Source: Lachnospiraceae bacterium (GTDB taxonomy: Bacteria; Bacillota; Clostridia; Lachnospirales; Lachnospiraceae). Taken from it: a DNA stretch of 64,000 nucleotides. The notes below the pieces were generated by a model that saw only the letters and a list, made by a program, of their open reading frames with translations, was not told where the DNA came from and did not search any database. The position numbers and the translations under genes are program-made. Of this stretch, positions 10,624 through 46,013 are shown piece by piece. The DNA lies in assembly GCA_900771995.1 (NCBI GenBank), contig CAAGQC010000007.1:2852-66851 (forward strand), read 5' to 3'. Numbering within the stretch: position 1 is the first letter of the stretch; each line of letters starts with the position of its first letter.

Positions 10624-10655
10624 TAACGGTTCGAGTCCCTCGGATCGTTATTTTT
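10624..10655. terminator. Hairpin between convergent araC and rhaD
   Basis: ATAACGGTTCGAG-tcc-CTCGGATCGTTAT followed by T-run. Confidence 0.55.
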
Positions 10656-11469
10656 CGTATAAGAACTCTTCGGGAAGGGTCACACCGAAATCCTTTGCCA
10701 GATGACGGAAATCATCAGGAGTGATGGTCTGTCTCTTATTGGGCTGCATGGACAGCATCTTCACCAGAATCTCTGCGGACTTTTCTACAGTATGCATCAG
10801 CCCGAAGGTCAGGTCGAAATCCTTGCCTGCGGCAAAGGTTCCGTGATGTGCCCAGATTGCCAGATCGTACTTCTTCATCAGTTCGGAGGTTGCTACCGCG
10901 ATCTCTCTGCCGCCCGGTACCATCCAGGGCACAACTCCTACGCCATCCGGGAATACTACGGGACACTCGGTGGCCATCTCCCACAGTTCTCTGGTGAATA
11001 CCTTATCCTCCAGAGGCAGTACGAAGGTCAATGCGATAATGTTGGTGGTGTGTGCATGATATACCACACGGTAATCGGGATCCTGCAGTTTCTTTACTTC
11101 CAGGTTCATCAGGTGGCTGGGAAGCTCGGAGGTAGGTCTGCCGCCATTTACCAGGCCCCATACGATACGGTAATTCTCACCCTTGTCATCCAGTTCGATC
11201 ATGCAGATGGAATCCTCCGGCTTAATGCTAACATTGCGGAAATATTTGCCGCTGCCGGTTACCAGGAAATACTCTCCTGCCAGTGCGGGAACGGTGGTGC
11301 CAATGGGCTGGAACTCCTTTGGCTCAAAGTTCTCCTTTACCAGTTCTACCTCTTCCGGCTTCACGCGGTAAGACAGGTTGCCGCCGTTGCGCTCATGCCA
11401 GCCCTGCTGCCATCCATCGTCTGCCATTCTGATAAATCCCTGTACAAATTCTGCATCTAAAAATTTCAT
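10648..11469 (-). CDS. rhaD: Rhamnulose-1-phosphate aldolase
   Basis: GWHERNGGNLS, VTGSGKYFRN, PTSELPSH, H.H.T, W..HG metal ligands. Confidence 0.95.
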   Translation of the reverse strand: MKFLDAEFVQGFIRMADDGWQQGWHERNGGNLSYRVKPEEVELVKENFEPKEFQPIGTTVPALAGEYFLVTGSGKYFRNVSIKPEDSICMIELDDKGENYRIVWGLVNGGRPTSELPSHLMNLEVKKLQDPDYRVVYHAHTTNIIALTFVLPLEDKVFTRELWEMATECPVVFPDGVGVVPWMVPGGREIAVATSELMKKYDLAIWAHHGTFAAGKDFDLTFGLMHTVEKSAEILVKMLSMQPNKRQTITPDDFRHLAKDFGVTLPEEFLYEK

Positions 11470-11563
11470 GATAATCCCTAACCTTTCCGTTGTCTGCAAG
11501 CCCTCCGGCACAGACATATTTTTCAAAACTATAATCGTATTCTCGTTTATTACGCCAATATCA

Positions 11564-12991
11564 TTACCGTGTGATCACATCTACCGGTACGTTCAATATT
11601 TTAGCAACCTTTAAAATGGTGTCAATATGTCTTCCGGCTGCAGCTGCCATGTGATGGGTAGGGCCTGCCTCACTCCAACGGTTCACGAACTCTCTGCAAG
11701 GAATAGAGAATTTGGTACGCATATTGGTATCGCCGAAAGTGAAGATCGGTCCCGGCTGATTCTCGCCTTCTGCCACAACGAACTTAAAGTTGCCGTCCTT
11801 ATCCTGCGTGATAGCCAGATAGGTTACAGGGCCTACAGGAGGATAGAACTGGGTCAGATATCCGCCGCCCACCTTGCCGTGGAATACTTTCACGATCTTC
11901 ATGGTAGGCTTATGTGCCAGAGAGATATCCGCATCGCCGGATCCGGAATGACCGATGATGCAGATGTCCTCGTTGAAATCAATGGAGTACATCTCGGACA
12001 GCTGTCCCATACCGGAAATGGTCTTCAAAATGGACATTGCCATGGCCACCTTCATGTCGCCTTCTACGGCACATGCGGTGCCCTGCTTGATCAGCATGGA
12101 AAATGCGGGGATCAGCATGGAGTCCAGTTTACCGGCTACGCCCTGGGCCTTGCCGGCATAATGGGAAGCGATCATGCTTAAATCTTCATCCTTTGCCCAC
12201 TGTTCAAAAGCAAGGACATGTTTTGCCATATCCATAATATCTTCGTCATCTGCGGTAGCGCCGCCCTCTACTTCGAAGGTATCGATGATATCCTGTGCCT
12301 TTGCCTTGATGGCTTCGGTATCGGTGATATCATCCGCAATGGCCCACATATCTTCCCAGTCAAACTGCTTGGTATACAGGCCCATTCTGTTGTAAAGATT
12401 GGTCTCATCGATATAGAGATCCATCATGCCGGGATAAGGACGGCCAATCTGGGCGATATTGGTCTGGCGGAAACGTCTGCGGACCTGGGCTGCCTTACAC
12501 CAGTCAGCGATTTCTGCTGCCACCTCCGGGTCACCGCCTTCTACAACGCCGGTGATCACAGCATGTCTCTTGCCCGCACGTTCCAAGTCTGCCACAGCCT
12601 CACCTACGGCACCGCAGGCATACAGGTCTCCCAGCCAGATGGGAATGTCTGTGTTCGCATAGTCCGGAGCCAGCTTCTTCTGCACATTGATGCACACTAC
12701 GGGAACATCCAGGTCACGAATGGCAGGAAGTACGTTATAGGAAGTTGCATAGGTCAGCAGCTGTAAAAATACCAGATCCACATCTGCCGCACGGAACTTG
12801 TCGCCTGCTGCCATAGCCTGTTCCTTGGTGGTCACCATGCCGCCGTCAATGATGTCTACGGTATCGGGAATCGTCTTCTTGAAATCCTCATACTGCGCCT
12901 CGAAATTAGACACCAGCTGGGGAAACTGGGGCAGATATGCTCCCAGAGCGATGGAAAATACACCGATCTTTGCCTTTGTGTTTACTAACAT
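11564..12991 (-). CDS. L-fucose/L-arabinose isomerase family protein (putative L-rhamnose isomerase)
   Basis: EGD, GHSG, GPTHH motifs of the FucI/AraA fold; sits between rhaB and rhaD. Confidence 0.85.
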   Translation of the reverse strand: MLVNTKAKIGVFSIALGAYLPQFPQLVSNFEAQYEDFKKTIPDTVDIIDGGMVTTKEQAMAAGDKFRAADVDLVFLQLLTYATSYNVLPAIRDLDVPVVCINVQKKLAPDYANTDIPIWLGDLYACGAVGEAVADLERAGKRHAVITGVVEGGDPEVAAEIADWCKAAQVRRRFRQTNIAQIGRPYPGMMDLYIDETNLYNRMGLYTKQFDWEDMWAIADDITDTEAIKAKAQDIIDTFEVEGGATADDEDIMDMAKHVLAFEQWAKDEDLSMIASHYAGKAQGVAGKLDSMLIPAFSMLIKQGTACAVEGDMKVAMAMSILKTISGMGQLSEMYSIDFNEDICIIGHSGSGDADISLAHKPTMKIVKVFHGKVGGGYLTQFYPPVGPVTYLAITQDKDGNFKFVVAEGENQPGPIFTFGDTNMRTKFSIPCREFVNRWSEAGPTHHMAAAAGRHIDTILKVAKILNVPVDVITR

Positions 12992-13062
12992 TTATGATTT
13001 CCTCCTTTTTAGGTCATGATTTATGTAACTGTTCCGCCTGCGCATTGGCAAGCTGCTTTCTA

Positions 13063-14472
13063 TTACTTTGCCGGAACAAATGTCTTGATCTCAAAAGACT
13101 CCCGGACACATTTTCTGGCACTCTTCAGATCCGCCAGTTCTTCCGCATGGATCATCTGCGCCAGCAGATTACCGATAGCCGTGGCCTCTCCGGGGCCTGC
13201 ATATACGGTCTTGCCTGTAGCATCCGCCGTCAGCTGGTTCAGATATGCGGCATTGGAACCGCCGCCGATGATATGGATGCTGTCGTAGGTCTTCCCTGCA
13301 ATTTTTTCCAGACCGCTTACCGTCTCCCCATAGGACTGTGCCAGACTGCGGTATACCACGGAAGCCAGTTCGCCCACGGTTTCCGGCACTGGCTGTCCTG
13401 TCTTCTGACAGTACTGCTTTATCGCTTCCACCATACTGTCCGGAGAGAGGAAGCTCTGGTCATTCACATCCACTCTGGACGGGAACTCCTTGCTTTCCTC
13501 CGCCATATCGCACAGCTGTGCAAAAGAGTAAGCGTCATTATATTCATGTCTTACGGACTGGATCATCCACAATCCCATAATATTTTTCAGGAAACGGAAC
13601 CGGTGATCGTAGCCGCCCTCATTGGTAAAGTTGGCTGCTGCCGCATCCTCGTTGATAATGGGTGTCAGTGATTCGATTCCCATGAGGGACCAGGTTCCCG
13701 AACTGATATAGATGCCGTCCCCCTCTGTCTGGGGTACTGCCATCACGGCAGATGCCGTGTCATGGCTTCCGCACAGCACTACTTCCAGATCATATCCAAC
13801 TTCCTTCTGAATCTCGGGAAGCAGCTGTCCCACTTTCGTTCCGGGCATCTGCAGAGGCAGGAAAATATCCTCCGGATAGCCCAGCTTCCGGATCAGGTCC
13901 GTATCCCACTGGAAAGTGGTGGGATTCACCAGCTGTGTGGTGGAACCGTTGGTATACTCCGATAATTTATGACCCGTCAGACGGAATCCGAAATAGTCCG
14001 GCAGCATGAGAAGTGTCTTCGCCTGCTGTAAAAGTTCCGGGGTCTGCTGTTTTACTGCCATCAGCTGATACACGGTATTGAAGATCTGCTTCTGGATACC
14101 GGTTCTTGCATACAGCTCTGTCTCCGGCAGGATCTTCGCCACTTCTGCGTCCATACCGTCCGTACGATGATCGCGATAACCGTAAGTATCTCCCAGGACA
14201 CGATCCTGCTCATCCAGCAGCACATAATCCACCGCCCAGGTGTCGATGGCCATGCTTACCGGGATCTTTCCCAGTTCTTTGCATTTCTTCATGCCGGCAA
14301 CGATCTCGCCGAACAGGCGGTTCACATCCCACAGAAGCTTGCCGTCCTTATGATCCATACCGTTCTCAAAACGGTAGATCTCTTCCAACTCTATTTTGCC
14401 ATTCTCCAGATGTCCCAGAATATGTCGTCCGCTGGAAGCACCGATATCCACGGCCAGATAATATTTTCCCAT
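13063..14472 (-). CDS. rhaB: Rhamnulokinase
   Basis: LAVDIGASSGR, IDTWAVDY, SHDTASA, ISSGTWSL, TNEGG, LKNIMGLW. Confidence 0.93.
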   Translation of the reverse strand: MGKYYLAVDIGASSGRHILGHLENGKIELEEIYRFENGMDHKDGKLLWDVNRLFGEIVAGMKKCKELGKIPVSMAIDTWAVDYVLLDEQDRVLGDTYGYRDHRTDGMDAEVAKILPETELYARTGIQKQIFNTVYQLMAVKQQTPELLQQAKTLLMLPDYFGFRLTGHKLSEYTNGSTTQLVNPTTFQWDTDLIRKLGYPEDIFLPLQMPGTKVGQLLPEIQKEVGYDLEVVLCGSHDTASAVMAVPQTEGDGIYISSGTWSLMGIESLTPIINEDAAAANFTNEGGYDHRFRFLKNIMGLWMIQSVRHEYNDAYSFAQLCDMAEESKEFPSRVDVNDQSFLSPDSMVEAIKQYCQKTGQPVPETVGELASVVYRSLAQSYGETVSGLEKIAGKTYDSIHIIGGGSNAAYLNQLTADATGKTVYAGPGEATAIGNLLAQMIHAEELADLKSARKCVRESFEIKTFVPAK

Positions 14473-19080: not shown

Positions 19081-19455
19081 CAGGTATCCTATTATAAAGC
19101 AATCGGAAAAGACAAACTGCTGAAAGCCGCAGAGCGCTTCGCCGACTATGTAGCAGACCACTTTGGCACCGCCGAGGGAAAATGTAAAGGGTATTCAGGC
19201 CATGAATTACTGGTGGATCCAGATATGCAGCCGGAGATCGTATCCGGTAAAATCTGTGAAACAAAAGTACCTGTGGTCGAGGTCAACGGATTCCGCAAAA
19301 AAGCAGCCTCCTCCACTGGGGAAAAGGCTGCCTCGCTTTATCGTACCTATGAAGCTCCTGTAAAAAACAGAGTAAGACTTCATTTCATTCCATATTATAC
19401 CTGGGCAAACCGTGGTGAAAACGAAATGCAGGTATGGACCCGCATATCGGATTAG
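19081..19455 (+). pseudogene. GH127 beta-L-arabinofuranosidase remnant with large internal deletion
   Basis: VSYYKAIGKDKLLKAAERFADYVADHFG..EGK.KGYSGHE joined in frame to C-terminal LHFIPYYTWANRGENEMQVW; no start codon. Confidence 0.75.
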
Positions 19456-21191: not shown

Positions 21192-21192
21192 T

Positions 21193-22365: not shown

Positions 22366-22441
22366 AATTTTTCCCTTTTCTTTATTATACAAGCCTGTGA
22401 CATGGAACCGGCACAGGCTTGTGAAAATACATTGTTATCCG

Positions 22442-23281: not shown

Positions 23282-23295
23282 AATCTGTGCGCCTC

Positions 23296-24986: not shown

Positions 24987-25041
24987 AACAATTCTCCTTT
25001 CAAACGCTTTTTGTGTCATCTTTTGCGTCTTTTTTGATAAG

Positions 25042-25068
25042 AAAGGGGCCGTAGGTACGACCCCTCTG
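25042..25068 (-). terminator. Hairpin after solute-binding protein gene
   Basis: AGGGGCCGTA-gg-TACGACCCCT inverted repeat. Confidence 0.5.
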
Positions 25069-25124
25069 TCTTATTCAACATTCAACAAACATTCCATACT
25101 TTAACTTTATAAGAAAGATCTTAA

Positions 25125-26489: not shown

Positions 26490-26750
26490 GTAAACCCTCC
26501 TGTTAATTTGATACTTCGTTGTGTGTCCCGGATCCGTTTTATCGGTTCCTTGACTGTAACTAAAGTATAACGAAAAAGGCCGGGACATGACATGGAAAAA
26601 TTTATAATAGTATTCACAATTTTTTATAATTTCTTTATATTTTTTCTGAAAGCGCTTACTGAAAATGTATTTTTTTATTTTAATATGCACTTTTTTTAGC
26701 ATCTTATTTTTCCAACTACCTTTTTTCCTCCGTTATGTTATACTGAATGC

Positions 26751-28562: not shown

Positions 28563-28600
28563 ACTTATAGATATAAGAAATAAGGACACAAGGAGTTACC

Positions 28601-30199: not shown

Positions 30200-30259
30200 C
30201 GGTTGTTACAGTTTGTCCCTTATGGGGAATTACGAATATGGAAGGATAGGATCAGGAAA

Positions 30260-33802: not shown

Positions 33803-34264
33803 TTATAATGCGATCTTGAATACCGCTTTTTTCACTTTACCGGCTTCGCCTGACCGGACGCAGGGTTTGTGCGCCTCTCCCGGGAGGAGTATGGCCAGTT
33901 CCCCTGCACGCAGATCCAACAGGGATGCTTTGCCATCCTTCCAGAACCGGATATCTGCCTCCGGATCGTACTCGGTATCCGGCGTGGGAAGTGGCTGCTC
34001 TGTTACCCAGATCTGCTCCCTTCCCTGCAGAATACACTGGATATCCGCATATCTTTTATGTGTCTCAAAGCGGCAGTCCCCGCAGGGCTTTGTCTCGTAC
34101 TCCTGGATGCTGACATAGATCCGCTCCCCGTCGATAACGTATTTTCCGCAGGACAGTGCCGCCAGATCCCGGGAGTTTACATATTCGCTTATCTTCTCTA
34201 TGCACTCTGCCGGTATTCCGGCTTCGGAATACTGCAGCAGAGCGTCCATATAACCTTTGACCAT
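33803..34264 (-). CDS. YhcH/YjgK/YiaL (NanQ/TabA-like) protein
   Basis: FE.H..YADIQ..L.G.E, YD...DI.F, PGEAHKP, VKKAVFKI. Confidence 0.9.
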   Translation of the reverse strand: MVKGYMDALLQYSEAGIPAECIEKISEYVNSRDLAALSCGKYVIDGERIYVSIQEYETKPCGDCRFETHKRYADIQCILQGREQIWVTEQPLPTPDTEYDPEADIRFWKDGKASLLDLRAGELAILLPGEAHKPCVRSGEAGKVKKAVFKIAL

Positions 34265-34285
34265 TGCTTATCCCTCCCGGCCGTT

Positions 34286-36082
34286 TTATTTATACATGGG
34301 ACCGTATGCAGCACAGGCACGATAATCCTGTCCCTCTTTGTCCATTCCGAAGGCATTCCAGGATGCCGGACGGAAGATCTTCTCCTCCGGTACGTTGTGC
34401 ATGCTTACCGGGATACGCAGCATGGAGCACAGGGTGATCAGATCGGCACCTACATGTCCGTAGCTGATGGCTCCGTGATTGGCTCCCCAGTTGTTCATAA
34501 CATCATAGGCACTCTTGAAAGGTCCCTCTTTTCCGTTGCATCTGGGTGCGAACCAGGTGCAGGGCCAGGTGTAATCCGTGCGCTTCCATAAGGTGTCTGT
34601 CACTTCTTCCGGCAGCTTCACCGTCCAGCCTTCTGCGATCTGTAAGGTGGGGCCGACGCCTTTGACCAGATTCAGACGGATCATGGTCACGGGCATCTGT
34701 GCCTCTGTCACGAAACGGGAGGAATAACCGCCTCCGCGGAAATAGCCGAAATCTGCCTCACTCCAGGTCGTTGCTTCCAGCATTGCCTTCTGATCCTCTT
34801 CCGTTACTTCGTACCAGGGCTTCATGACAGAGTTACCCTCCGCATCCCTGGCCTGTCCGCTGGCATCCAGACATGCCGCACCGGAATTGATCAGATGGAT
34901 AAATCCGCCTGCTTCCTTCGCCACTCCTTCGACATCATAACCGGTTGCTTTCTTCACGGCCTCCGGACTCCAGTAAGTACGAACATCCGCAAAAATCTGT
35001 GCACGGTTGGTCAGAAGCTTCAAGAACAGCATTCCCAGTCCGTTTAATACGTCATTCTCCGTCGCAAGGATATAAGGCTCTCTTGCACCGTTCCAGTCAA
35101 AAGTAGTATTCAGCATTGCCTCGGCAAAATCCGTATTGGGATAGTAATCTGTCCACTGTCTCTGTCCCTGGAAGCCTGCGGCAATGGCATTGTGTCCCAC
35201 CATTTCCTCTTCTCTTCCGGCGGGTAATCTGTCATTACCGTTCATCAGATCCTTGATGATGCACATGGTCTTTACAACGAATTTCCAGTCCTTTTCCTTC
35301 TCTTCGGGAGTCTTCTGGATCTCTGCCGGATTCTTGTCCAGCCCGTCCGGACAATGTTCTCTCGTCCACTTATAAGCCTTTTCGAACTCATCCTTGTCAT
35401 AAATTTCCTGCTGGATACGGCGCAAGATCTCCACTTCATCCACGGATTCCACGCGCATTCCCAGGTATTCCTCAATGAATGCAGGATCGATAATGGATCC
35501 GCCGATACCCATGCAGATAGAACCGATCTGCAGATAGGATTTGCCTCTCATGGTAGCCACAGCTACGGCTGCACGTCCGAAACGCAGCAGCTTCTCCTGT
35601 ACGCCTTCCGGAATCTTGGTAGCATCTGCTTCCTGCACATCATGTCCATAGATGCCGAATGCAGGCAGTCCCTTCTGGGCATGTGTTGCCAATACGGATG
35701 CAAGGTATACGGCACCGGGTCTCTCCGTACCATTGAATCCCCAGACACCCTTTATCGTGTTAGGCGACATATCCATGGTCTCCGCACCGTAACACCAGCA
35801 GGGTGTCACCGTCAGAGTAATGGCAACGCCCTCTGATTCAAAATAGTCTGCACATTTTGCCGCTTCTGCCACACGTCCGATGGTGGTAGGAGAAATCACT
35901 ACCTTTACCGGCTCTCCGTTGCTGTAACGAAGATTTTCTTCGAACAGCTTTTTCGCAGAAGAAGCCATATTCATGGTCTGTTCTTCCAACGAGCCTCTTA
36001 CATTCAGATAACCCCGTCTCGCATCGATCACGGGGCGGATTCCGATCACCGGATATTTTCCTATGTATCTGTTTTCAGCCAT
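34286..36082 (-). CDS. fucI: L-fucose isomerase / D-arabinose isomerase
   Basis: [63 protein letters not shown]. Confidence 0.95.
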
Positions 36083-36181
36083 ATTGTCCTCTTTTCTGCG
36101 CTGCCTCTTCATTCCATTCTGTTTCTTCTCTGTTGCTGCCATGGGACTGCGGTATCAGCGCCGGTACAGTCCAAAGGTTTC

Positions 36182-37108
36182 TTAGCGGGCGATTCCCAGT
36201 TCGGCCTCTACCTCTGCGGACAGGCGGATAAGCTGTTCCGCCTCCATCCGCTGTGCGACAGTCAGTTTCTTCCAGTCTACTCTTCTGCTGTGCAGCGTCA
36301 TGGGAACTCCCATTTTCTGTAAGGCGTATTTCGCATTCACGGGATAGTTGCTGTTCTCGATCAGAGAGCACATAGTCAGCAGATCCGTCACTTTCCGGGC
36401 TTTTTCAGGCTGTGCGGCGTAGTTTTTGCACAACCAGCTGTACAGTCTGGGATGGAAATTCGCCATGACTCCGCTGTATCCTGCGGCTCCCTCCTGCAAT
36501 GATTCCAGTAATGTCGCAGTATTGGCATTGTAAAGCTTCAGATTGCTTCCCTGGATCAGCTGCAATTTTTCGCTCATGCTCGCCATATCGCAGCTGGTAT
36601 CTTTCAGGAAGTAGAATCTCTCACTGTCTACCAGGAACTTCACCACTTCTTTGCTCAGCACTCTCTTGTAGGGATAAGGACATTCATAAAATCCAAGAGG
36701 CAGATCCTTCGGAAGCTGTTCCATCAGTGTCTGCAGCCTTTCGATCATTACCTGATCGGACTCCTGCTGTGCGGCAGGCCTGTTGGAGATCAGGATCAGC
36801 GCGTCGATCCCCGTGTCTGCCATGTGCTTCAGTTCTTCCACCTGATCCTCCATGGAATCAGAAATATGTCCGGATGCGATCACCGGTTTCCCGTTCGCAT
36901 ACTTTTTCACAGCCGTTGCAATTTTGCAGCGTTCTTCCAGTGTCAGCTGGAACATTTCGCTGGACTGACATACCGCAAACAGTCCGTCACAGTCATTTTC
37001 AAAATACCATTCTGTCAGTTTCTCCAGTGCCGGATAGTCAATTTTATTATCCTCCGTATAAGGAGTCAGCATCACCGGCCATACTCCATTAGGAAATTCG
37101 TTTTTCAT
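36182..37108 (-). CDS. DHDPS/NanA-family class I pyruvate aldolase
   Basis: PVMLTPY, GLFAVCQSSE (variant of GxxGE), YECP, LKDTS Schiff-base Lys. Confidence 0.88.
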   Translation of the reverse strand: MKNEFPNGVWPVMLTPYTEDNKIDYPALEKLTEWYFENDCDGLFAVCQSSEMFQLTLEERCKIATAVKKYANGKPVIASGHISDSMEDQVEELKHMADTGIDALILISNRPAAQQESDQVMIERLQTLMEQLPKDLPLGFYECPYPYKRVLSKEVVKFLVDSERFYFLKDTSCDMASMSEKLQLIQGSNLKLYNANTATLLESLQEGAAGYSGVMANFHPRLYSWLCKNYAAQPEKARKVTDLLTMCSLIENSNYPVNAKYALQKMGVPMTLHSRRVDWKKLTVAQRMEAEQLIRLSAEVEAELGIAR

Positions 37109-37152
37109 TGTATCTCCCATCTGCCCGCCCTGCGGACTTCTTTATTTGTATC

Positions 37153-40100
37153 TTACCTTTCCATCAGTACCGGTGCCTTAAGGATTCCGTAGGGTTCCAC
37201 CTTATATTCCGGTGTATATTTTTCACCGCTGGTACGAAATACAGAATCATTCGTCACTTCCGGTCTGCCTCCTGCGAAGTGAAAAGGACCGAATAAATTC
37301 CGCAAAGAACTGTAAATTTCTATCTCAAGGTGATTGTCACCTTCTTCTAATGCCTCTGTAATGTCGATCATTCCCGCTGCTCTCCAGGGAACTTCATAGG
37401 AAGCCATTCCCAGTCTGACCGTAGCGCAGGTACCCTTGAAATCTTTCAATTTCAAATAGATCCGGCTGTCCGGTCTCCTTTTACAGCTTGGATTCCATCG
37501 AAAATCATACAGATATTTCACGCTGCCCGCATAATGGTACAATCCCTGGGCCGTCCAGTCTCCTACCATCAGCGTGGTCGGTTGTTCCGTAATCTTCCGG
37601 TCTGTGTTTACGCCGAACTCTCCGCAGAGATAACAGTTTTCCAGTTCCATGGAATTACGGTAACGACAGATCAGCCGCAGCCTGTTCTCTCCTTCTGCCC
37701 AGCCCGGAAGCGGAATCCTCTTGATTCCTCTGTCATACAGGCATCCCGTGATCCGTTGCTCCACCGGCTGTCCGTTCAGATAGATCTGAAAATTTTCCGG
37801 ATGTTCGATTGCAAGTTCCGTGTAACCTGTAATTTTTTTCACCGTCTCAAATGTAAATTCCAGTGAGACTTCCGTTCCGTCCGCAGGATGAGGTTCTCTT
37901 ACCCAACGGTAACGCTGTTCTTTTCCAAGGGCTGCTATGGAGCGCATTCCCAGTCCTGTGCGGATCTGTTCCTGTGCCTCCCATACCTGCATCGGTTCCG
38001 ACCAGTGCCCCTCCTGTACACGGTATCTGCAACTATCCAACGTATACAGGTTGGGATCGGTCAGCCGGATCGTTGTCCGTTCCGACAGCACCTGAAGTTC
38101 TGTTTCATCGGCCTCTGCCGTCACTACGCCTGTGCCGGCTGCCTTCCCCGCGGTTTTCTCCATTTTGTCCATTTTCTCCAAGAAAAACAGGCGTGAAGTC
38201 TGTGCTTCCAGCCGTGTCTGAAAAACGGTCTGTCCCTGTCCGGTCACGGCCTCCACCGTTTTATGATTTCCGGTGAGTGCATCCCACTCTTCCACAGAAG
38301 CCTCCACAGGTACGCGAATCTCTACCGCACAGTCTTCCGTCCGGTGATAGTTTGTCACGAACAAAAGCTGTCCTTTTTCCAGGAACTTCTGCAATGCGAT
38401 ACAGCGGGTCTCTTCCCCGTCTCCGTTCCGGATGCTTACGGTCCGCACCCCCGCGTTCTCCAACACTTTTATAAGTTCCTCATCACTGTGTACCGCCACA
38501 CTATTTTTCGCGGTGAACAGTTCTGCAGGGAGGTCACTTTCCATGGCATCCAACAGAATCGGTCCCGGATCTGTCACGATCAGCTGACCGCCCTGTTCCA
38601 CAAATTCTTTCAGAAGTCTGTAGGTACTGCCCAGCATGGTACGGATCTTCGGCAGAACCACTGTCCGGTACTGCATTTCACCCAGAAGCAGTCTGCCCGG
38701 TTCTACAGATCCATACTTCGCCAGCAGGATCTCATCTCCCAGATCGGGGTCCAGATGATGATTGCAAAGCTTTTCCAGCAGCGCATTATATTCCCATCCA
38801 TATTCGTTGACCTTCTGCAGATCACGCTCTTTGCGACGCACAGGATTGCCGTAGGGGCTGGCTCCCATCATGCTCCAGGCCGTAGTCGACGGATGCAGCA
38901 ACAGATACTGCTGGCTGGGAGAACCTTCTTCCAGAGCGGCACTCAGTCGCCCGAAATAGTCTTCCACCACATGATCTTTGCTCCACCAGGGGATATTGTA
39001 GCCGAAGCCCGGAGGACAGTCTCTCTTCCTGCCACCGGTCAGAGAATACAATGACAGGTGCTGGCAGCGCTTATTCACGCCCAGTGCGTATTGCCAGTCT
39101 CCGATATGCCGCTGTCCTTCGAAGGTAAAATCCCATCCGGTCACGCCATAGGTCTCGGAGATGACATTCTTTTTCCCCATCTGGTGCGCCACGCTGACGC
39201 ATTGCTTCACGGTGAGAAATTCTTCCGTCTTGTCCTGGAGGATATCCACTCCGGGAATATCCTCATATTCATACAGCGGCATCGTTGCTCCGCTGACTCT
39301 GGTAGACAGTCCCAGCTTATCCTCCTGAAGAAAATGTCCTGTCATGAGCAGATGGTGCTCTCTGCACCATGCGGCGATCTGTCCGGAATAATTCTCGCTG
39401 AACCGCAGGGCGATGGCATGCCAGTAATCATGTCTTATTTTCGCACTGCCCTCTCCTTCGAAGAAAAACAGCGGGATTCTGTCAACAGGATCATAGCCGT
39501 TCTTCTCCCGGAAATACTCTGCAAATCCATAAGTCCAGGGAATCCAGCTCCGATCCGCTCCAAAAGCGGAATGTGTATCCGCCAGACTGGGTTCATCTGT
39601 AAAAATTCCGGGAATCGTTTTACCGAATTCCTCTCCAAACCGTTCCAGATATTTATCATGGGTCAGATGCAGGAATCTCTGTACCGTATCCGGATTCAGG
39701 TTGTCCACGGGAGTTTCCCCGTTGAACCATTCGCTCTTTGCCGATATTTCCAGGCGCAAAATGAGAAATACCTGTCTGCATCCGGGATGCTGTTTTTTCT
39801 CTTCCGGCTCCGGGACCTCTGTCATGGCAGCTTCCAACCGTTTCAGAAAATAAATGGCATCTCCCTGTACCAATGCGGTAAATACTGCAATAAGGTGTTT
39901 CTCCTGCCATACCGCAGGATCACAGGTATCGCATACCTGCAGAGTCAACCCTTTCAGGCGATAGGCATCTCCTCCGGCCGCCACCATTCCTCCGGCATTA
40001 CCGGAGGGCCAGCGGTCATCATCGTACAGCCAGGCCGCTATGCCCAGCTGTTTTGCTTCATCCACCGCTGCCTCCACGCAGTCCATCCATTCTCTGCCCA

Positions 40101-40299
40101 GATAAGGAGTCTCCAGACCATCCCGGGAGTGAATAAAGAATCCTCCTACTCCCTGCTCATAAAGCTCTCTTACCTGCCGTCTGACTTCTTCCGGGGTCAT
40201 TTCCGCATTCCAGGACCAAAAAGGAGTTCCCCGGTATTCTCTTGCCGGATTCTGAAATTTTCTGTAGATGTCTTCCTTTGTCCTGTTGCTGTCTTTCAT
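37153..40299 (-). CDS. GH106-like glycoside hydrolase (alpha-L-rhamnosidase candidate)
   Basis: F.NP..EYR..PFWSWN, GGFFIH.R.G, WLYDD..WPSG.AGG, GIFTDEP; no signal peptide. Confidence 0.8.
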   Translation of the reverse strand: MKDSNRTKEDIYRKFQNPAREYRGTPFWSWNAEMTPEEVRRQVRELYEQGVGGFFIHSRDGLETPYLGREWMDCVEAAVDEAKQLGIAAWLYDDDRWPSGNAGGMVAAGGDAYRLKGLTLQVCDTCDPAVWQEKHLIAVFTALVQGDAIYFLKRLEAAMTEVPEPEEKKQHPGCRQVFLILRLEISAKSEWFNGETPVDNLNPDTVQRFLHLTHDKYLERFGEEFGKTIPGIFTDEPSLADTHSAFGADRSWIPWTYGFAEYFREKNGYDPVDRIPLFFFEGEGSAKIRHDYWHAIALRFSENYSGQIAAWCREHHLLMTGHFLQEDKLGLSTRVSGATMPLYEYEDIPGVDILQDKTEEFLTVKQCVSVAHQMGKKNVISETYGVTGWDFTFEGQRHIGDWQYALGVNKRCQHLSLYSLTGGRKRDCPPGFGYNIPWWSKDHVVEDYFGRLSAALEEGSPSQQYLLLHPSTTAWSMMGASPYGNPVRRKERDLQKVNEYGWEYNALLEKLCNHHLDPDLGDEILLAKYGSVEPGRLLLGEMQYRTVVLPKIRTMLGSTYRLLKEFVEQGGQLIVTDPGPILLDAMESDLPAELFTAKNSVAVHSDEELIKVLENAGVRTVSIRNGDGEETRCIALQKFLEKGQLLFVTNYHRTEDCAVEIRVPVEASVEEWDALTGNHKTVEAVTGQGQTVFQTRLEAQTSRLFFLEKMDKMEKTAGKAAGTGVVTAEADETELQVLSERTTIRLTDPNLYTLDSCRYRVQEGHWSEPMQVWEAQEQIRTGLGMRSIAALGKEQRYRWVREPHPADGTEVSLEFTFETVKKITGYTELAIEHPENFQIYLNGQPVEQRITGCLYDRGIKRIPLPGWAEGENRLRLICRYRNSMELENCYLCGEFGVNTDRKITEQPTTLMVGDWTAQGLYHYAGSVKYLYDFRWNPSCKRRPDSRIYLKLKDFKGTCATVRLGMASYEVPWRAAGMIDITEALEEGDNHLEIEIYSSLRNLFGPFHFAGGRPEVTNDSVFRTSGEKYTPEYKVEPYGILKAPVLMER

Positions 40300-40301
40300 A
40301 T

Positions 40302-41345
40302 TCAGTCCTCTAATGTAAAGCTTACGTACACGATCTTTTCCCGTTTCCAGGTATAAGTGATCATAATCTTATTGTCGTCGTTGCAGATTACGGAAGGATA
40401 GCAATAATCGCCTCTCTGATCTTCCAATGTACAGATGATCTCGAAGGTCTCTCCGTTGTCTCTGGACAGTGCAACACTAAGCGGGGTTCTCGGTCCCTTG
40501 TAATAACCGGGCAGATTCTCTCTGGGATTATAGACCAGCACCAGATCGCCGTTCTTTAATTTGACCAGATCGATACCGCTGTTATTGTTGGGAAGCCCGG
40601 TGTCATATGCCAGACACCATGTCCTTCCGCCATCCTCGGAATCGCTGCGGATGATCCGGGAGCTGCTACTGCGACAGAGCATATGTACTTTTCCATCCCG
40701 ATCCTCCCAGAGGGTGGGCTGAATAATACCTTTTCCATAGATATAATGTCTGTCATAAGGTCTGTCGATCACCTGCACGTTATGAACGCCTTTGTCCGTG
40801 ATTGCCAGTCTGTGCAGAGGTACCAGATCGCTTCTCTCCCAGGTGCGGCAGTCATCTCTGGAGATATCCACAAATCCGTCCCACAGTTCCCCTTCCAGGG
40901 ATCCGGGGGCCAGAACGGTACCGTCACTTAACCGGATAGGTTTATTCTTGACAGGGCCTCTGCCTCCGATATCTCCGGGTACCAGTTCCTGCGGCTCTGA
41001 GAAGGTGTGTCCTTCGTCTTCACTTTCCATATACCAGGTCACCCATTCCGAGATCAGCTTACCGACCTTATAGAAGAGGATAATTTTTCCATCTTCCTTG
41101 CGGAAAAGTACGGGATTCCACATGGCAACTCCTCTTACATCCGCTACCTTTACCGGTTGTCCCCAGCCATCCATATCACGTATCGCTGTCCAGATCGCTA
41201 CATCCGGGTTCTTTTCCCATGCACCGCCAAACCATGCCGCCAGAATGCCGCCGTCCTTTAATTCCAGCAGTGTTGAGGCATGGGCACTGTCAAAAGGTTT
41301 GTTATCATCTGTGATAAATTCCTGTGTATAATTTGTAATCTTCAT
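40302..41345 (-). CDS. BNR/Asp-box sialidase-like protein
   Basis: Asp boxes SEDEGHTF, SRDDCRTW, SEDGGRTW, SRDNGETF; RTPL, Y.YPS; lacks FRIP (AHAST instead); no signal peptide. Confidence 0.88.
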   Translation of the reverse strand: MKITNYTQEFITDDNKPFDSAHASTLLELKDGGILAAWFGGAWEKNPDVAIWTAIRDMDGWGQPVKVADVRGVAMWNPVLFRKEDGKIILFYKVGKLISEWVTWYMESEDEGHTFSEPQELVPGDIGGRGPVKNKPIRLSDGTVLAPGSLEGELWDGFVDISRDDCRTWERSDLVPLHRLAITDKGVHNVQVIDRPYDRHYIYGKGIIQPTLWEDRDGKVHMLCRSSSSRIIRSDSEDGGRTWCLAYDTGLPNNNSGIDLVKLKNGDLVLVYNPRENLPGYYKGPRTPLSVALSRDNGETFEIICTLEDQRGDYCYPSVICNDDNKIMITYTWKREKIVYVSFTLED

Positions 41346-41453
41346 ACTGTCAGTCACACCTTCCATTGCCTGATTCTGTCTTTTTAGCAGAATGAACGGG
41401 TAACATGCCCGTTCACTCTGTGTTATGTTCTGTTACTTTTCTTGTCCGATGAC

Positions 41454-43136
41454 TTATTTGGTCTCTGCTACAGCACGGGCTTCTGCGTCATTCCACAGCT
41501 GCTCCAGTTCTCTTACGCCCATGTCCTCAGCCTTCTTGATCAATGCATCCCAGTTATCGATGGATTCCTTGCCGGTAATGTACTTATCGTATTCCTGCGT
41601 GAAGAAGGTATCCAGATCGGTGGTCAGTTCCTTCACACGGTCTGCTTCTTCGGTAGTGAAGGAGGGTGCAATGTGGGGCTGTACATAAGCGTCATCATCA
41701 TTGATGATCTTCCAGTAATCTTCTGTCAGATCGGACCAGCTTCCGGTGATCATCTGGATCTCACGCTGGGTCTTGATGTTACATGCATACATGGAGAAGT
41801 CCAGTTTACCTGCTCCGATATCTGTCCAGCATGCATAGTAGTCAGAAGGAGAGGCATCCTTGAACTGCATTACATAATCGGAAATATATTCTGCCTCACC
41901 GTCTGCATTGTACTGGAAGGTCTCACCCTCGATACCGTAGTTGGTAATGTCGGAAGCCTCCATGGAGTACATCCAGTCGATGAATTTAATGATCTGATCT
42001 TTGTTCTTGGCATTTGCATTGATTGCATACAGCTTACCGAATCTTGTATCGTAGGATACGGCACGTCTCTCACCCAGACTGTTCTCGGGAATCGGCAGTA
42101 CCTGGAAAGTAGCATTCTCATTACCGTCGATCTTGCGCAGTTCGTTGGTGTAGTTCTGACCGAATCCACTATTATCCACGAAGAAGAAGGACTGACCGCT
42201 ACTGCACTTAGTCGTCATGGAATCAGAGTCGGTCGTTGCATATTCCTGATCCAGAACGCCGGTGGTATATGCCTTGTTCAGAAACTTCAGTACTTCTTTG
42301 AAATTGGTATCTGCGGGACCGTATACATACTTGCCCAGATCCTCATCCCAGTACATACCGGAACTTGCGGATACGGAGCCGAAGCCGGAGCCTAACATAT
42401 AGGAAGTGGTCTTTAACAGGTTAGCGGTTCCCTTTCTGATTGCCCAGGGAGTGCTGTCAGGATAGATCTCCTTTAACTGTGCCAGTGCATCCAGTACTTC
42501 ATCCCATGTGGTAGGAGTTGCGATGCCGTTCTCTTCCAGAAGGTCGGTACGGATTACGGGGCCGAAGCCGTTTGCCCACTCATCACGAAGTACTACGGGG
42601 AATACATACATTTCACCGTCTACCATGTATCTCTGCATTTCAGGATACTGCTCCCAGAACTTGTAGAAGTTCGGCATGGTCTCTTCGTTGATATACTGGC
42701 TCAGAGGCTCGAAGATACCCTCGGATGCGAAATCGGAAATATCACTTGCGCTTCTCAGATAAATAATGTCCGGGAAGTTCTGTGTGGACAGTGCAATATT
42801 TTTCTTCTCATCATAGCTGCTGGAAGGAACGATCTGGAAATCCAGCTTTACATTGGTTGCTTCAAAAATTGCCTCATGGGACTTGCTGTCCTGTGCCATG
42901 GGCTGCTGGCTGGAATCCATGACCATAATACTGATCTCCAGCGGCTCGTCGCTGATCCAGGAAGGATGCTCGCTGTTTGCTTCCTGTGTGCCTGCACTTG
43001 CAGTGCTCTCCTGCGCATTATTTGTTGCGGCATCATTACTGCCGGAAGCATCGGAACCACATCCTGTCAACAGAGATGCGCTCATTGCTGTTACCGCCAA
43101 TAAGGCTGTCAGTTTTTGAAATGCTTTCTTTTTCAT
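41454..43136 (-). CDS. ABC solute-binding lipoprotein (LplA-like, uronate oligosaccharide type)
   Basis: LTGC lipobox, IRTDLLE..G...PTTWDE, YGIEGE.F. Confidence 0.92.
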   Translation of the reverse strand: MKKKAFQKLTALLAVTAMSASLLTGCGSDASGSNDAATNNAQESTASAGTQEANSEHPSWISDEPLEISIMVMDSSQQPMAQDSKSHEAIFEATNVKLDFQIVPSSSYDEKKNIALSTQNFPDIIYLRSASDISDFASEGIFEPLSQYINEETMPNFYKFWEQYPEMQRYMVDGEMYVFPVVLRDEWANGFGPVIRTDLLEENGIATPTTWDEVLDALAQLKEIYPDSTPWAIRKGTANLLKTTSYMLGSGFGSVSASSGMYWDEDLGKYVYGPADTNFKEVLKFLNKAYTTGVLDQEYATTDSDSMTTKCSSGQSFFFVDNSGFGQNYTNELRKIDGNENATFQVLPIPENSLGERRAVSYDTRFGKLYAINANAKNKDQIIKFIDWMYSMEASDITNYGIEGETFQYNADGEAEYISDYVMQFKDASPSDYYACWTDIGAGKLDFSMYACNIKTQREIQMITGSWSDLTEDYWKIINDDDAYVQPHIAPSFTTEEADRVKELTTDLDTFFTQEYDKYITGKESIDNWDALIKKAEDMGVRELEQLWNDAEARAVAETK

Positions 43137-43184
43137 TTAACCTCTCCTTTTCTTAAATACGTTCTTCCTTTATAATTTGTTTCT

Positions 43185-44072
43185 TTATCCCTTAACTGCT
43201 CCGACCATAACACCCTTTGTGAAGTACTTCTGTAACAGAGGGTATACAAGCAGAATAGGTACGATGGAAATAATGATCACCGCATATTTATAGTTGGTTG
43301 CGATGATGTTGACACTTCCTGTGATCTCGGAGGTGTCACCCTGTATTACGATGTCACGCATGACAACCTGTACAGGATATTTTTTCTGATCATTCAGGTA
43401 CAACATGGAAGGGAAGTAGCTGTTCCAGTGGTACACGGCATAATATAATGTCATGGTTGCGATGATCGGTTTGGACAGCGGCAGGACGATCTTGCTGAAG
43501 ATCGTAATGTCGTTTGCACCGTCCAGATATGCGGATTCTACCAGGGAATCCGGGATCGCCTGGAAGGAAGTTCTCATGACAATCATATTGTAGGTACTGA
43601 TGGCGGGCGGCAGAACGATGGCCCACATGGTGTTGATCATATGAAGCTTATTGATTACCAGATAGGTAGGGATCATACCACCGTTTACGAACATTGTGAT
43701 CATGATCAGCACGGTAAATATCTTACGTCCGTAAAAATCCTTTCTGGAAAGAGGATAGGCACACATTGCGGTAAGCACCAGACAGATCAGTGTTCCCAGA
43801 CCTGTGTATAAAAAGGTGTTCTTATATCCGCTCCAGATTCTCTGGTTCTCAAATACTGCCTTATAGGCATCGAAATTGATTCCTCTGGGGAACAGTGTTA
43901 CCAGTCCCTGATTGATATACTGCGAAGAACTGATAGACACAATAAATACATAAAACATCGGGTAGAACATAATGAATCCGAGGATTGCCAGCAGAAGGTA
44001 GTTCACAACATCAAATATTTTGCTGCCGATTCCCTGCGGTTTTTTGCTTTTTATTTTTACTTTCTTAGTCAT
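43185..44072 (-). CDS. ABC permease (LplC-like)
   Basis: GGMIP.YL, ESAYLDGA, WNSYF, YP.LQKYF.KGVMVGAVKG. Confidence 0.95.
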   Translation of the reverse strand: MTKKVKIKSKKPQGIGSKIFDVVNYLLLAILGFIMFYPMFYVFIVSISSSQYINQGLVTLFPRGINFDAYKAVFENQRIWSGYKNTFLYTGLGTLICLVLTAMCAYPLSRKDFYGRKIFTVLIMITMFVNGGMIPTYLVINKLHMINTMWAIVLPPAISTYNMIVMRTSFQAIPDSLVESAYLDGANDITIFSKIVLPLSKPIIATMTLYYAVYHWNSYFPSMLYLNDQKKYPVQVVMRDIVIQGDTSEITGSVNIIATNYKYAVIIISIVPILLVYPLLQKYFTKGVMVGAVKG

Positions 44073-44082
44073 TTCTGTCCTC

Positions 44083-44988
44083 CTACCACAAGCTGCTGTC
44101 ACTGAGTTTTTTCGATATCTGATTGGATGTTACCAGCAGGATCACACCAATGACGGACTGGAACAGACCCACCGCTGTGGAATAACTGAAGTCCGCACTC
44201 AGAATACCTCGTCTGTATACATAAGTGGAAATTACATCCGCAGTCTCATAAGTAGATCCGTTATACAGCAGGATGATCTTCTCATATCCCAGGGACATCA
44301 GTCGTCCGATCTGCATGATCAGCATAATGGAGATGGTCGGTGCAATAGAGGGAAGCGTTACCGATTTAATTCTCTGGAAACGGTTCGCTCCGTCGATCAT
44401 TGCGGCCTCCAGGATCTCCTGGTCCACAGAGGTCAACGCGGACAAATAAATAATGGAAGTCCATCCACAGGTCTGCCAGATACCGGATGCGGTAAATATG
44501 GTACGGAACCATTCGGGCAATACCATGAACTGGATCTTGTCAAAACCGAATGCGGCGATAAGCTGATTAATGATTCCGTCCAGGGACAGGAAGTTCATTA
44601 CCATACCACAGACAACCACGGTGGAAATGAAGTGAGGCAGGTAGCTGACAGTCTGGATCACTCTCTTGAACTTGGCATTTGTTACCTCGTTCAACATCAG
44701 TGCCAGGAGGATCGGTACCGGGAAGCCCCACAACAGTCCGTAGATATTTAACAGTAATGTATTTTTCACCAGTTTCCAGAAATAAGGATCCGTCAGGAAC
44801 TTCTGGAACCATTTGAAGCCCACCCAGGGGCTTCCCCATACACCCTTTGCGATCTTGTAATCCTTAAATGCGATCAATACCCCGTACAAAGGCAGGTAAT
44901 GGAACAGGATGTAATAGATGATCGGAAGTAACATCATAATATACAGATATTTGCATTTCTTGATCTTCTTCCACGGCGATGTTTTCAT
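44083..44988 (-). CDS. ABC permease (LplB-like)
   Basis: SPWVG.KWF, SYLPHFIS.VV, EAAMIDGA, DVISTYVY. Confidence 0.95.
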   Translation of the reverse strand: MKTSPWKKIKKCKYLYIMMLLPIIYYILFHYLPLYGVLIAFKDYKIAKGVWGSPWVGFKWFQKFLTDPYFWKLVKNTLLLNIYGLLWGFPVPILLALMLNEVTNAKFKRVIQTVSYLPHFISTVVVCGMVMNFLSLDGIINQLIAAFGFDKIQFMVLPEWFRTIFTASGIWQTCGWTSIIYLSALTSVDQEILEAAMIDGANRFQRIKSVTLPSIAPTISIMLIMQIGRLMSLGYEKIILLYNGSTYETADVISTYVYRRGILSADFSYSTAVGLFQSVIGVILLVTSNQISKKLSDSSLW

Positions 44989-45024
44989 GTTGTCTCTCCT
45001 TCTGTGCAATCATTGTTTCTTGTT

Positions 45025-45041
45025 GTTCTGTATTGGAGAAC
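45025..45041. promoter_or_regulatory. Putative IclR operator upstream of catabolic operon
   Basis: GTTCT-GTATTGG-AGAAC inverted repeat; 16/17 identical to 45997-46013. Confidence 0.7.
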
Positions 45042-45065
45042 TCCGTTCTCTAAAATATCTTTTTG

Positions 45066-45095
45066 AAAAGGATTGATTTCTCAATCCCCTTTTTC
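45066..45095 (-). terminator. Hairpin after iclR
   Basis: GGATTGA-tttc-TCAATCC flanked by A and T runs. Confidence 0.6.
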
Positions 45096-45107
45096 ACATT
45101 TTTTAAC

Positions 45108-45869
45108 TTAATAAAGAATGTTTTGTAATTCCCGTATTTTGTTTTGTAATTCCTTTGCCAGTGACTGGATCCGTTCATCATAGAATCTCAGGGAAGGTCC
45201 TGTGATACTCACTCCCGCCACCACCTGGCCGTTTCTGCCAAGTACCGGAACCGCTACACATTTTACGCCAAATTCATGTTCCATATTATCTATTGCGTAA
45301 CCGCGCTGCCGGATCTCTCTAAGTTCCTTCAACAGTGCATCCCCGTCCGTGATCGTATAATCGGTATAGGCTTCCAGCTTTCTGGCTGCGTAAGCCCGTT
45401 GTTTCTCCTCCGGAAGATATGCCAGCATTGCCTTGCCCAGTCCGGTACAATGCATCTGTGCATGCTCACCCATGATCGGCCGCATAAGGTCAATGGAGGT
45501 CTTCGGATAAGCAGAGGTCACGTAGATGATCTCCTGTTCATGCGGGATTGCAAGATAGACTCTCTCGCCAGCCATATCTGCAAGTTCCTGTAAATACGGA
45601 GCTGCTACACTACCAATGCTTAAGTTCTGTCCCAGAGAATAACACAGGGAGTACACGCTGAGTCCCAGCTTGTATCTGCCACTCTCATCATCCTGATCCA
45701 GATACCCCATTGCTTTGAATGTAGACAAAATATTATGTACGTTACTTTTATTCAGATCCAGCTGTTCGCTGATCTCTGTCACACCCCAACTGCTTTTCTT
45801 CGTAAAGCAGTTCAAAATTTCAAGAGCTTTCTGCAGGCTCTTTACTTTTACTTCTGCCTCATTTACCAT
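45108..45869 (-). CDS. IclR-family transcriptional regulator
   Basis: SL.KALEIL, HTH, HCTGLGKAMLA, IR.RGYA.D..E...GV.CVAVP. Confidence 0.95.
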   Translation of the reverse strand: MVNEAEVKVKSLQKALEILNCFTKKSSWGVTEISEQLDLNKSNVHNILSTFKAMGYLDQDDESGRYKLGLSVYSLCYSLGQNLSIGSVAAPYLQELADMAGERVYLAIPHEQEIIYVTSAYPKTSIDLMRPIMGEHAQMHCTGLGKAMLAYLPEEKQRAYAARKLEAYTDYTITDGDALLKELREIRQRGYAIDNMEHEFGVKCVAVPVLGRNGQVVAGVSITGPSLRFYDERIQSLAKELQNKIRELQNILY

Positions 45870-45874
45870 CTTGT

Positions 45875-46013
45875 GTTCTCCATTTGGTAATCGCGTTCTT
45901 TATTTCGTAACATCATTATATATTTTTTGCAGGCTAAAAATCAATAGCACATTTTGATAAATTAGCCTCGTAACTTTTGTCTATAATTAACTTCTCGTTC
46001 TGTATGGGAGAAC
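45875..46013. promoter_or_regulatory. iclR promoter with putative operators
   Basis: Minus-strand TTGATT-N18-TATAAT (-10 at 45915-45920); GTTCTnnATnnnGwAAy boxes at 45875, 45895 and 45997. Confidence 0.6.

Follow-up and report, generated by a model that had tools for sequence, protein, structure and literature searches.

We analyzed a 64,000-nucleotide stretch of DNA from a Lachnospiraceae bacterium (positions 2,852 to 66,851 of contig CAAGQC010000007.1; hereafter, the window) and focused on nine co-oriented genes that encode a regulator, an ATP-binding cassette (ABC) importer, two putative glycosidases, an aldolase, the isomerase FucI, and a YhcH-family protein. We conclude that these genes form a real, regulated catabolic operon that follows the logic of a nan cluster, yet is not a nan cluster. 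Comparison of the operon with its relatives makes 3-deoxy-D-manno-octulosonate (Kdo) the sugar that it probably degrades. Kdo is part of every Gram-negative lipopolysaccharide (LPS), of many capsules, and of plant rhamnogalacturonan II (RG-II), whose side chain C consists of Rha-(1,5)-Kdo. The Kdo aldolase activity has been traced to Ghalambor and Heath 1966, as cited in the excerpt of PMC12199768. According to PMC10619137, the products of the split are pyruvate and D-arabinose, and E. coli BW25113 has no gene annotated for the activity. The activity, EC 4.1.2.23, is listed among orphan activities in a 2007 table (PMC1940265, as excerpted). A search of full-text literature, with subscription journals mostly outside its coverage, found no gene assignment for Kdo catabolism. 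A Kdo aldolase of Veillonella may already have been studied, and the novelty of the assignment is therefore not certain.

Open reading frames (ORFs) and Pfam and NCBIfam profile matches placed all nine genes on the minus strand from 45869 to 33803, confirming the cluster, order, and coordinates of the original prediction:

45108..45869, minus strand: IclR-family regulator (PF01614 and PF09339).
44083..44988, minus strand: ABC permease of the LplB type (PF00528; 44988 is the likelier start, with a ribosome-binding site).
43185..44072, minus strand: ABC permease of the LplC type (PF00528; likelier start 44072).
41454..43136, minus strand: solute-binding lipoprotein of the LplA type (PF01547; lipobox-like LLTGC in the translation).
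40302..41366, minus strand: cytoplasmic sialidase-fold propeller, a candidate Kdo glycosidase (BNR_2, PF13088, 241 bits; alternative start 41345).
37153..40299, minus strand: predicted GH106 alpha-L-rhamnosidase of the Ram106B type (PF17132, 60.8 bits, cut-off 29).
36182..37108, minus strand: class I aldolase of the CQSSE subfamily, a candidate Kdo aldolase (PF00701, 102 bits; likelier start 37108).
34286..36082, minus strand: FucI, L-fucose/D-arabinose isomerase (TIGR01089 and PRK10991 passed; likelier start 36082).
33803..34264, minus strand: YhcH/YjgK/YiaL-family protein, a candidate anomerase or ring-opening helper (TIGR00022 passed).

The intergenic distances are 2-119 bases when the likelier start codons are taken, and ORF and profile annotation found no ABC ATPase gene within the cluster. 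The enzymes had been predicted to lack signal peptides, and we found no hydrophobic N-terminal stretch in the aldolase, the GH106 protein, or the propeller. The best 11-residue stretch scored at most 0.89 in these three, 1.1 in FucI, 1.45 in YhcH, and 1.88 in the lipoprotein, on a hydropathy scan that is a crude test and not SignalP. Annotation of the locus also bore out the absence of nanK, nanE, fucK, fucA, and fucU. The locus shares the logic and folds of nan clusters (sialidase, solute-binding-protein importer, NanQ/YhcH, NanA, NanK, and NanE), but its aldolase shares about 20% identity with NanA and carries the CQSSE motif, NanK and NanE are absent, and the partners are D-arabinose enzymes by prediction. 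With the L-fucose/D-arabinose pathway (FucI-FucK-FucA-FucU) it shares a true FucI, but FucK, FucA, and FucU are absent beside it, and relatives of the locus pair FucI with a ribulokinase. Across 12.2 kb, the cluster and a locus of Waltera hominis show 95.6% identity, a match that we used just to place the family. W. hominis also has a nanA/nanE/nanK cluster at a separate site, which favors a role other than sialic acid catabolism for the present locus. The host assembly is 88.5% complete, which applies to every genome-wide absence reported here.

From the genes, families, folds, catalytic residues, co-occurrences, and operator that we observed, we infer the following pathway, including its substrates, the sequence of its reactions, and its kinase. 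IclR would repress an operon for Kdo glycosides. The ABC system, with an ATPase supplied in trans, would import a small rhamnosyl-Kdo oligosaccharide, for example Rha-(1,5)-Kdo on galacturonate from RG-II side chain C or a fragment of bacterial LPS or capsule. We give rhamnosyl-Kdo an even chance of being the imported unit, and RG-II a lower than even chance of being the source of the glycan. The GH106 enzyme would strip L-rhamnose, to be degraded by the products of a rhamnose operon 20 kb from the locus. The sialidase-fold protein would release Kdo, and YhcH would accelerate ring opening. The CQSSE aldolase would then split Kdo into pyruvate and D-arabinose via a Schiff base on Lys173, which by description is the reaction of EC 4.1.2.23, and FucI would convert D-arabinose to D-ribulose. 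Finally, D-ribulose would be phosphorylated by a kinase encoded elsewhere, either RhaB (together with a lone FucA-like aldolase) or another FGGY kinase.

The predicted model of the aldolase (pLDDT 90.6) is a TIM barrel of the dihydrodipicolinate synthase/N-acetylneuraminate lyase (DHDPS/NAL) type, and it matched NAL, DHDPS, HOGA, and YagE all alike (TM 0.80-0.83, Z 27-34). The Schiff-base lysine K173 and Y145 align with DHDPS residues and were invariant in 20 of 20 sequences, and a YECP motif was present in all 103 relatives. CQSSE replaces the carboxylate-binding motif G-S/T-T-G-E (GTTGE) in 99 of the 103. As judged from alignment, CQSSE marks a separate subfamily, and membership of the DHDPS/NAL superfamily still holds. 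The aldolase failed the curated cut-offs for NanA (45 versus 281 for PRK04147; 33.8 versus 382 for TIGR00683), DapA (96.8 versus 206), KdgD, HpaI, and archaeal 2-keto-3-deoxygluconate aldolase. A separate DHDPS-family gene lies on contig C81 of the same genome. Sequence and structure searches found no solved structure more than 24% identical. Thus, sequence and fold identify the chemistry, that of a pyruvate lyase of a 2-keto-3-deoxy acid, and not the substrate.

The substrate is suggested by the enzymes encoded next to relatives of the aldolase. The survey covered 103 loci, of which 79 came from a genome scan (the best 80 of at least 589 confirmed), four from a plasmid collection, 19 from a Lachnospiraceae sample (counted after dropping one duplicate), and one further locus. 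Neighbors were taken within ~10 kb, and many loci were cut by contig ends. FucI was encoded in 18 of the 103 loci, an FGGY kinase of the ribulokinase type in nine, and either one in 20; three of the nine kinases were scanned, and all three passed ribulokinase cut-offs. FucA, FucK, and AraD occurred in none of the 18 loci with FucI, whereas the ordinary fucose operons used for comparison do contain FucA, FucK, or FucU. Eight other loci encoded a ribokinase-like kinase and/or an SIS protein, mostly with RbsD/FucU. The kinase passes the ribokinase cut-off. The SIS protein lacks CBS domains and is closest to the KpsF/KdsD/GutQ models, below their cut-off, and its best solved relatives include 2xhz, 3etn, and 5uqi (which we take to be E. 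coli c3406), arabinose-5-phosphate (A5P) isomerase among them. A Klebsiella locus paired a distant FucI-like protein (E 4e-5) with a TIGR01315 pentulose kinase.

FucI with a ribulokinase, and a kinase with an A5P isomerase, each convert D-arabinose to D-ribulose-5-phosphate. Neither module takes fucose or N-acetylmannosamine (ManNAc): L-fuculose has no C5 primary hydroxyl for ribulokinase, and fucose is unusable by A5P isomerase. Three unrelated modules therefore share D-arabinose, and the ulosonate that yields pyruvate plus D-arabinose is Kdo. This is our main argument, and on it we consider Kdo the substrate of the aldolase with reasonable, though not full, confidence.

Other neighbors in the 103 loci included the propeller (37), a rhamnosidase family (22), YhcH (21), and a 2-hydroxyacid dehydrogenase (17). 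Rhamnosidases were the commonest other glycosidase partner, with GH78 in the GH106 slot at some loci. An E. coli island beside araC (L101:7728-11402) encodes a ribokinase-like kinase, a CQSSE aldolase, and TctCBA, and it was present in 574 of 5426 complete genomes. The presence of a ribokinase-like kinase alone fits a host that already owns the isomerases, and the island is a candidate Kdo salvage unit.

Linkage at the level of the locus was matched by co-occurrence at the level of the genome. Among 300 random Lachnospiraceae genomes, one per genus, FucI was present in 18 of 18 genomes with the aldolase and in 57 of 282 others (Fisher p 3e-12), and among 201 Paenibacillaceae genomes it was present in 16 of 16 and 111 of 185, respectively (p 7e-4). 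Both p values are inflated by relatedness among the genomes and by shared diet. Of the eight genomes with a kinase/isomerase module, several of them metagenome assemblies of unstated completeness, four yielded no FucI. The original prediction had said beforehand that a lack of conserved aldolase-fucI linkage in other genomes would count against it; the survey shows that the linkage recurs, and in both genome samples FucI accompanied every aldolase. The FucI of the window passed both curated cut-offs (953 versus 850 for TIGR01089; 1028 versus 775 for PRK10991), and its best structures were a tie between a D-arabinose isomerase (3a9r, 838 bits) and an L-fucose isomerase (4c21, 834 bits). On a FucI tree (63 rows, FastTree), aldolase-linked FucIs were scattered over about six places, which suggests repeated recruitment, and two genomes kept a second FucI in a fucose-type context. 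We saw no dedicated D-arabinose FucI clade on this tree. On an aldolase tree (104 rows, quick method), the modules were intermixed, which speaks for a common substrate.

The GH106-like protein (1048 residues) matched only GH106 structures by profile (best E 2.6e-23). D235-E236, H322, D352, and E382 were invariant in 13 of 13 aligned sequences; the last three were placed by alignment to 5mqm and D235-E236 by its position just upstream of the alignment. The excerpt of PMC6828813 describes Ram106B as an intracellular GH106 subfamily that was active only on the rhamnoside among the p-nitrophenyl substrates tried, in which Asp-Glu, His, and Asp replace residues of BT0986 and the base Glu is kept (BT0986 positions 458-459, 538, 561, and 593). 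The residues of the window protein fit this signature. Like TM1074 and its relatives in Ram106B, as that excerpt describes them, the protein is predicted to be intracellular and is encoded beside an ABC importer, and it differs by its link to an ulosonate lyase; we assigned it by its signature. No second GH106 and no GH78 gene was found in the host genome. A likely sink for the released rhamnose is encoded in the window:

10648..14472, minus strand: separate rhamnose operon encoding RhaB kinase, a FucI/AraA-fold isomerase, and RhaD aldolase.

The RhaA slot of this operon holds a 475-residue FucI/AraA-fold protein with weak SftI and AraA hits, possibly a non-orthologous L-rhamnose isomerase. 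On contig C30 of the host genome (L109:3674-7434), a xylulokinase gene is followed by genes for a DUF4867 protein and a 494-residue FucI-fold protein, possibly a xylose isomerase unit that does not use XylA.

The predicted model of the propeller (pLDDT 90.7) contains Asp boxes and superimposed on the M. viridifaciens sialidase (1eut/1eur) with Z 36.5 and an rmsd of 2.2-2.3 Å over 306 residues. A single-sequence structure search returned no close solved relative. Y323, R232, and R293 align with motifs of pneumococcal NanA and were invariant in 25 of 25 sequences; we take them to be the tyrosine nucleophile and the second and third arginines of the triad. R136 was nearly invariant, and the invariant E51 and E158 are possible catalytic substitutes. 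Fusions of the propeller to a DHDPS-family (aldolase) domain are common, which argues that the propeller works with the aldolase, and fusions to a GH127 domain also exist. Possible substrates of the propeller are free forms of Kdo and a small disaccharide with two carboxyl groups. B. thetaiotaomicron BT1013 is a GH33-type Kdo hydrolase. KdhA is a further sialidase-like Kdo hydrolase (PMC3573668, as excerpted). Compared by description, the window propeller shares with these enzymes a sialidase fold and a predicted action on a Kdo ketoside, and differs in that it is a single domain, predicted to be cytoplasmic, in which Gln takes one catalytic position and His apparently another. We found no GH78-propeller fusion in the best 120 of 421 longer propeller relatives, and no BT1013-like protein via relatives in loci titled Bacteroidota. 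YhcH passed TIGR00022 (117.5 versus 45.5) and failed the NanQ equivalog NF040884 (92.4 versus 160).

Candidate control elements lie in front of the IclR gene and of the transporter genes:

45997..46013, no strand assigned: candidate IclR operator upstream of iclR, palindrome GTTCT-N7-AGAAC, third-best site genome-wide.
45915..45944, minus strand: promoter-like site TTGATT-18-TATAAT, 10 of 12 matches, weak.
45895..45911, no strand assigned: weaker operator copy, score 13.4, just downstream of the -10 box.
45025..45041, no strand assigned: candidate IclR operator ahead of the transporter genes, the top site of the genome at 23.3 bits.

The genome was scanned with a matrix trained on other genomes. 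A loose form of the palindrome, a pattern chosen after the window had been seen, preceded iclR in 16 of the 29 further aldolase loci examined, compared with a shuffle mean of 1.3 and maximum of 6. The recurrence of the operator and its rank in the genome indicate that the cluster is one regulated unit. Promoter-like sites were no more common in the region than in shuffles (14 versus 17.1), and terminator and hairpin counts across the region were at chance level. A ten-pair hairpin lies at 41393-41415, between the binding-protein and propeller genes, and is possibly an mRNA stabilizer.

The original prediction held that one model explains every gene of the locus. This claim failed at the kinase step. 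The locus encodes no kinase for D-ribulose, and we found no AraB-type ribulokinase in the host genome, nor any match to the W. hominis ribulokinase. The four FGGY kinases of the host are a glycerol kinase, a xylulokinase, RhaB, and an unclassified kinase beside AraD. The matrix scan found no operator ahead of rhaB, the FucA-like gene, or any kinase; thus, the regulon does not identify the kinase for D-ribulose. RhaB accepts D-ribulose, and RhaB-type kinases are present in fucose operons of Lachnospiraceae and Paenibacillus. A lone FucA-like class II aldolase on contig C109 (L108:7285-8007), with no sugar genes around it, is a candidate for ribulose-1-phosphate cleavage. Our guess is that RhaB and this aldolase finish the D-ribulose route.

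The missing kinase is one of several observations that weigh against Kdo as the substrate. The CQSSE subfamily has no characterized member, and its specificity is read purely from gene association. The co-occurrence of aldolase and FucI could come in part from shared diet and kinship, and on the FucI tree the window enzyme nests among FucIs of fucose operons. At the thresholds used, 75 of the 103 loci had neither D-arabinose module within ~10 kb, six Lachnospiraceae aldolase copies were isolated among housekeeping genes, and one Paenibacillaceae genome held five aldolase paralogs with varied partners, so the family may have several substrates. FucI and the kinase/isomerase modules never overlapped, yet not significantly so (p 0.15). 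A GH29 fucosidase adjoined the aldolase in two of the 103 loci, once next to FucI. The 2-hydroxyacid dehydrogenase of 17 loci has no place in the model; one guess is that it is a pyruvate sink. The propeller has an invariant Q216 at what we take to be the position of the catalytic Glu of GH33 enzymes. It lacks the RIP motif (F/Y-R-I-P) and has an invariant H29-A-S where the first Arg is expected, beyond the reach of the alignment. The fold of the predicted Asp-box sialidase-like enzyme held, while two GH33 catalytic positions, the Glu and apparently the first Arg, are changed. The propeller was also present in 12 of 13 loci with tricarboxylate-type (TctA) importers, which may carry monomers.

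A variant that stays within the Kdo explanation keeps the same core and changes the glycan to bacterial debris (LPS core or Rha-Kdo capsule) and/or has the propeller act on free Kdo, as a lactone or anhydro-Kdo. We regard this variant as possible but somewhat doubtful. Further glycosidase partners of the aldolase among the 103 loci were GH38 (6), GH20-like (5), GH4 (2), and GH29 (2), and three Gram-positive GH38 loci (L039, L087, L096) also encoded an ROK kinase together with a GmhA-like isomerase, partners that breakdown of heptose-Kdo or mannose-Kdo would call for. These three loci would fit breakdown of the heptose-Kdo inner core of LPS to sedoheptulose-7-phosphate. The lack of a detected GH78 in the host also suits a bacterial glycan, and Q216 and apparently H29 at catalytic positions, with the tricarboxylate-type importers, suit action on free Kdo. 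However, the combination of rhamnosidase, propeller, and aldolase also recurs in Paenibacillaceae and Clostridium of soil, a habitat rich in plant RG-II. A propeller that is not a glycosidase is also hard to reconcile with the invariant Tyr nucleophile and two Arg residues, with the possible Glu substitutes, and with the existence of sialidase-like Kdo hydrolases such as KdhA (PMC3573668, as excerpted).

It is unlikely that FucI acts on L-fucose from a rhamnose/fucose glycan while the aldolase acts on N-acetylneuraminate (Neu5Ac), 2-keto-3-deoxynononate, legionaminate, or pseudaminate. The position of FucI among fucose-operon enzymes and the two GH29 loci would fit this explanation, and a RhaB-type kinase with the FucA-like aldolase could complete fucose catabolism. 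A typical nan cluster likewise encodes YhcH and a protein of the sialidase fold, and the host lacks the separate nanA/nanE/nanK cluster of W. hominis. However, the low NanA score of the aldolase (45 against 281) and the failure to find NanE in the host genome, which leaves no ManNAc route, oppose Neu5Ac. We found no GH29, GH95-type, or FucU gene in the host genome, and ribulokinase and A5P-isomerase partners misfit fucose or mannose-type products.

Another 2-keto-3-deoxy acid, such as the 3-deoxy-D-lyxo-heptulosarate (Dha) of RG-II side chain D, is still a little less likely as the substrate. Here, the dehydrogenase loci would show the true next step: the 2-hydroxyacid dehydrogenase was right beside the aldolase in the 17 loci, 16 of them without a D-arabinose module, several paralogs occurred per genome, and propeller-GH127 fusions exist. 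Against this, the dehydrogenase clade of the aldolase tree, which is well supported, has two FucI loci nested within it, and Lachnospiraceae genomes of the dehydrogenase type all have FucI elsewhere. The window locus itself has FucI and no dehydrogenase, and Dha cleavage yields a four-carbon acid aldehyde, which is not a FucI substrate. Lastly, it is highly improbable that the aldolase ends an oxidative L-rhamnose route by splitting 2-keto-3-deoxy-L-rhamnonate into pyruvate and lactaldehyde: rhamnosidases are frequent neighbors and an amidohydrolase (lactonase-like) or Zn-dehydrogenase is present at some loci, but the window locus has no dehydrogenase or dehydratase, the genome has the RhaB/RhaD route, and the FucI, ribulokinase, and A5P-isomerase partners would be left unexplained.

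Taken together, the Kdo core of the original prediction gained comparative support, from the three D-arabinose modules, from FucI in every aldolase genome of two samples, and from the Ram106B signature, and the substrates stay at the level of probability. More broadly, the CQSSE subfamily may be the missing Kdo aldolase of EC 4.1.2.23 in organisms as varied as gut Lachnospiraceae, soil Paenibacillus, and about one-tenth of sequenced E. coli. Kdo would be freed by a His/Gln variant of the sialidase fold, exchangeable glycosidases would remove its caps, among them the rhamnose of RG-II and the heptose or mannose of LPS core, and three interchangeable modules would process D-arabinose. We put this general proposal at slightly short of an even chance.

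Several further observations concern the aldolase loci and the rest of the window. A PF12831 FAD-dependent oxidoreductase was encoded in eight aldolase loci (L045, L052, L063, L071, L076, L080, L132, L148); seven of the eight lack the propeller, and elsewhere PF12831 is often fused to it. Eight loci (L050, L058, L067, L088, L256, L262, L263, L269) encode beside the aldolase a 460-residue protein without a Pfam family (weak Fn3 only), possibly a new glycosidase. In L200, L202, and L203, from another phylum, the aldolase gene has a HAD-IIA phosphatase gene on one side and a sodium:solute symporter gene on the other, as would suit import of Kdo in phosphorylated form. A record labeled Alloprevotella (L099/G301) has Bacillota-like gene content and relatives, and its label may be wrong. 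Within the window, an AAA_14/DUF4143 ATPase gene (32257-33609) lies directly downstream of yhcH, at a site where W. hominis DNA differs. An AAA-ATPase/PD-(D/E)XK gene occupies 17177-19036. A second sugar cluster (19452-32191) encodes DUF2264 and GH88/105-like proteins, a two-component system, a heparinase II/III-like lyase, and an ABC importer with a DUF7402 gene between its permeases.

The operon offers a candidate aldolase gene for the orphan activity EC 4.1.2.23 and suggests what Ram106B rhamnosidases may act on in nature. It also encodes a sialidase-fold protein with unusual catalytic positions and provides an operator from which the regulon can be studied. A native Kdo aldolase would be useful for Kdo synthesis and for reading Kdo-probe labeling. 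If the assignment is true, many genes now annotated as 'dihydrodipicolinate synthase family' and 'exo-alpha-sialidase' would be re-annotated, and such genes, or FucI, would be poor signs of mucin foraging. According to the excerpt of a 2026 preprint from an RG-II group, B. thetaiotaomicron growing on RG-II secretes Kdo, and Kdo-use pathways in other gut microbes are unconfirmed (10.64898/2026.03.13.711244). The secretion of Kdo speaks for Kdo as the substrate of the aldolase. Under the broader proposal for the CQSSE subfamily, Gram-positive gut bacteria would live in part on Kdo left over from pectin by Bacteroides, and on the LPS cores of their neighbors.

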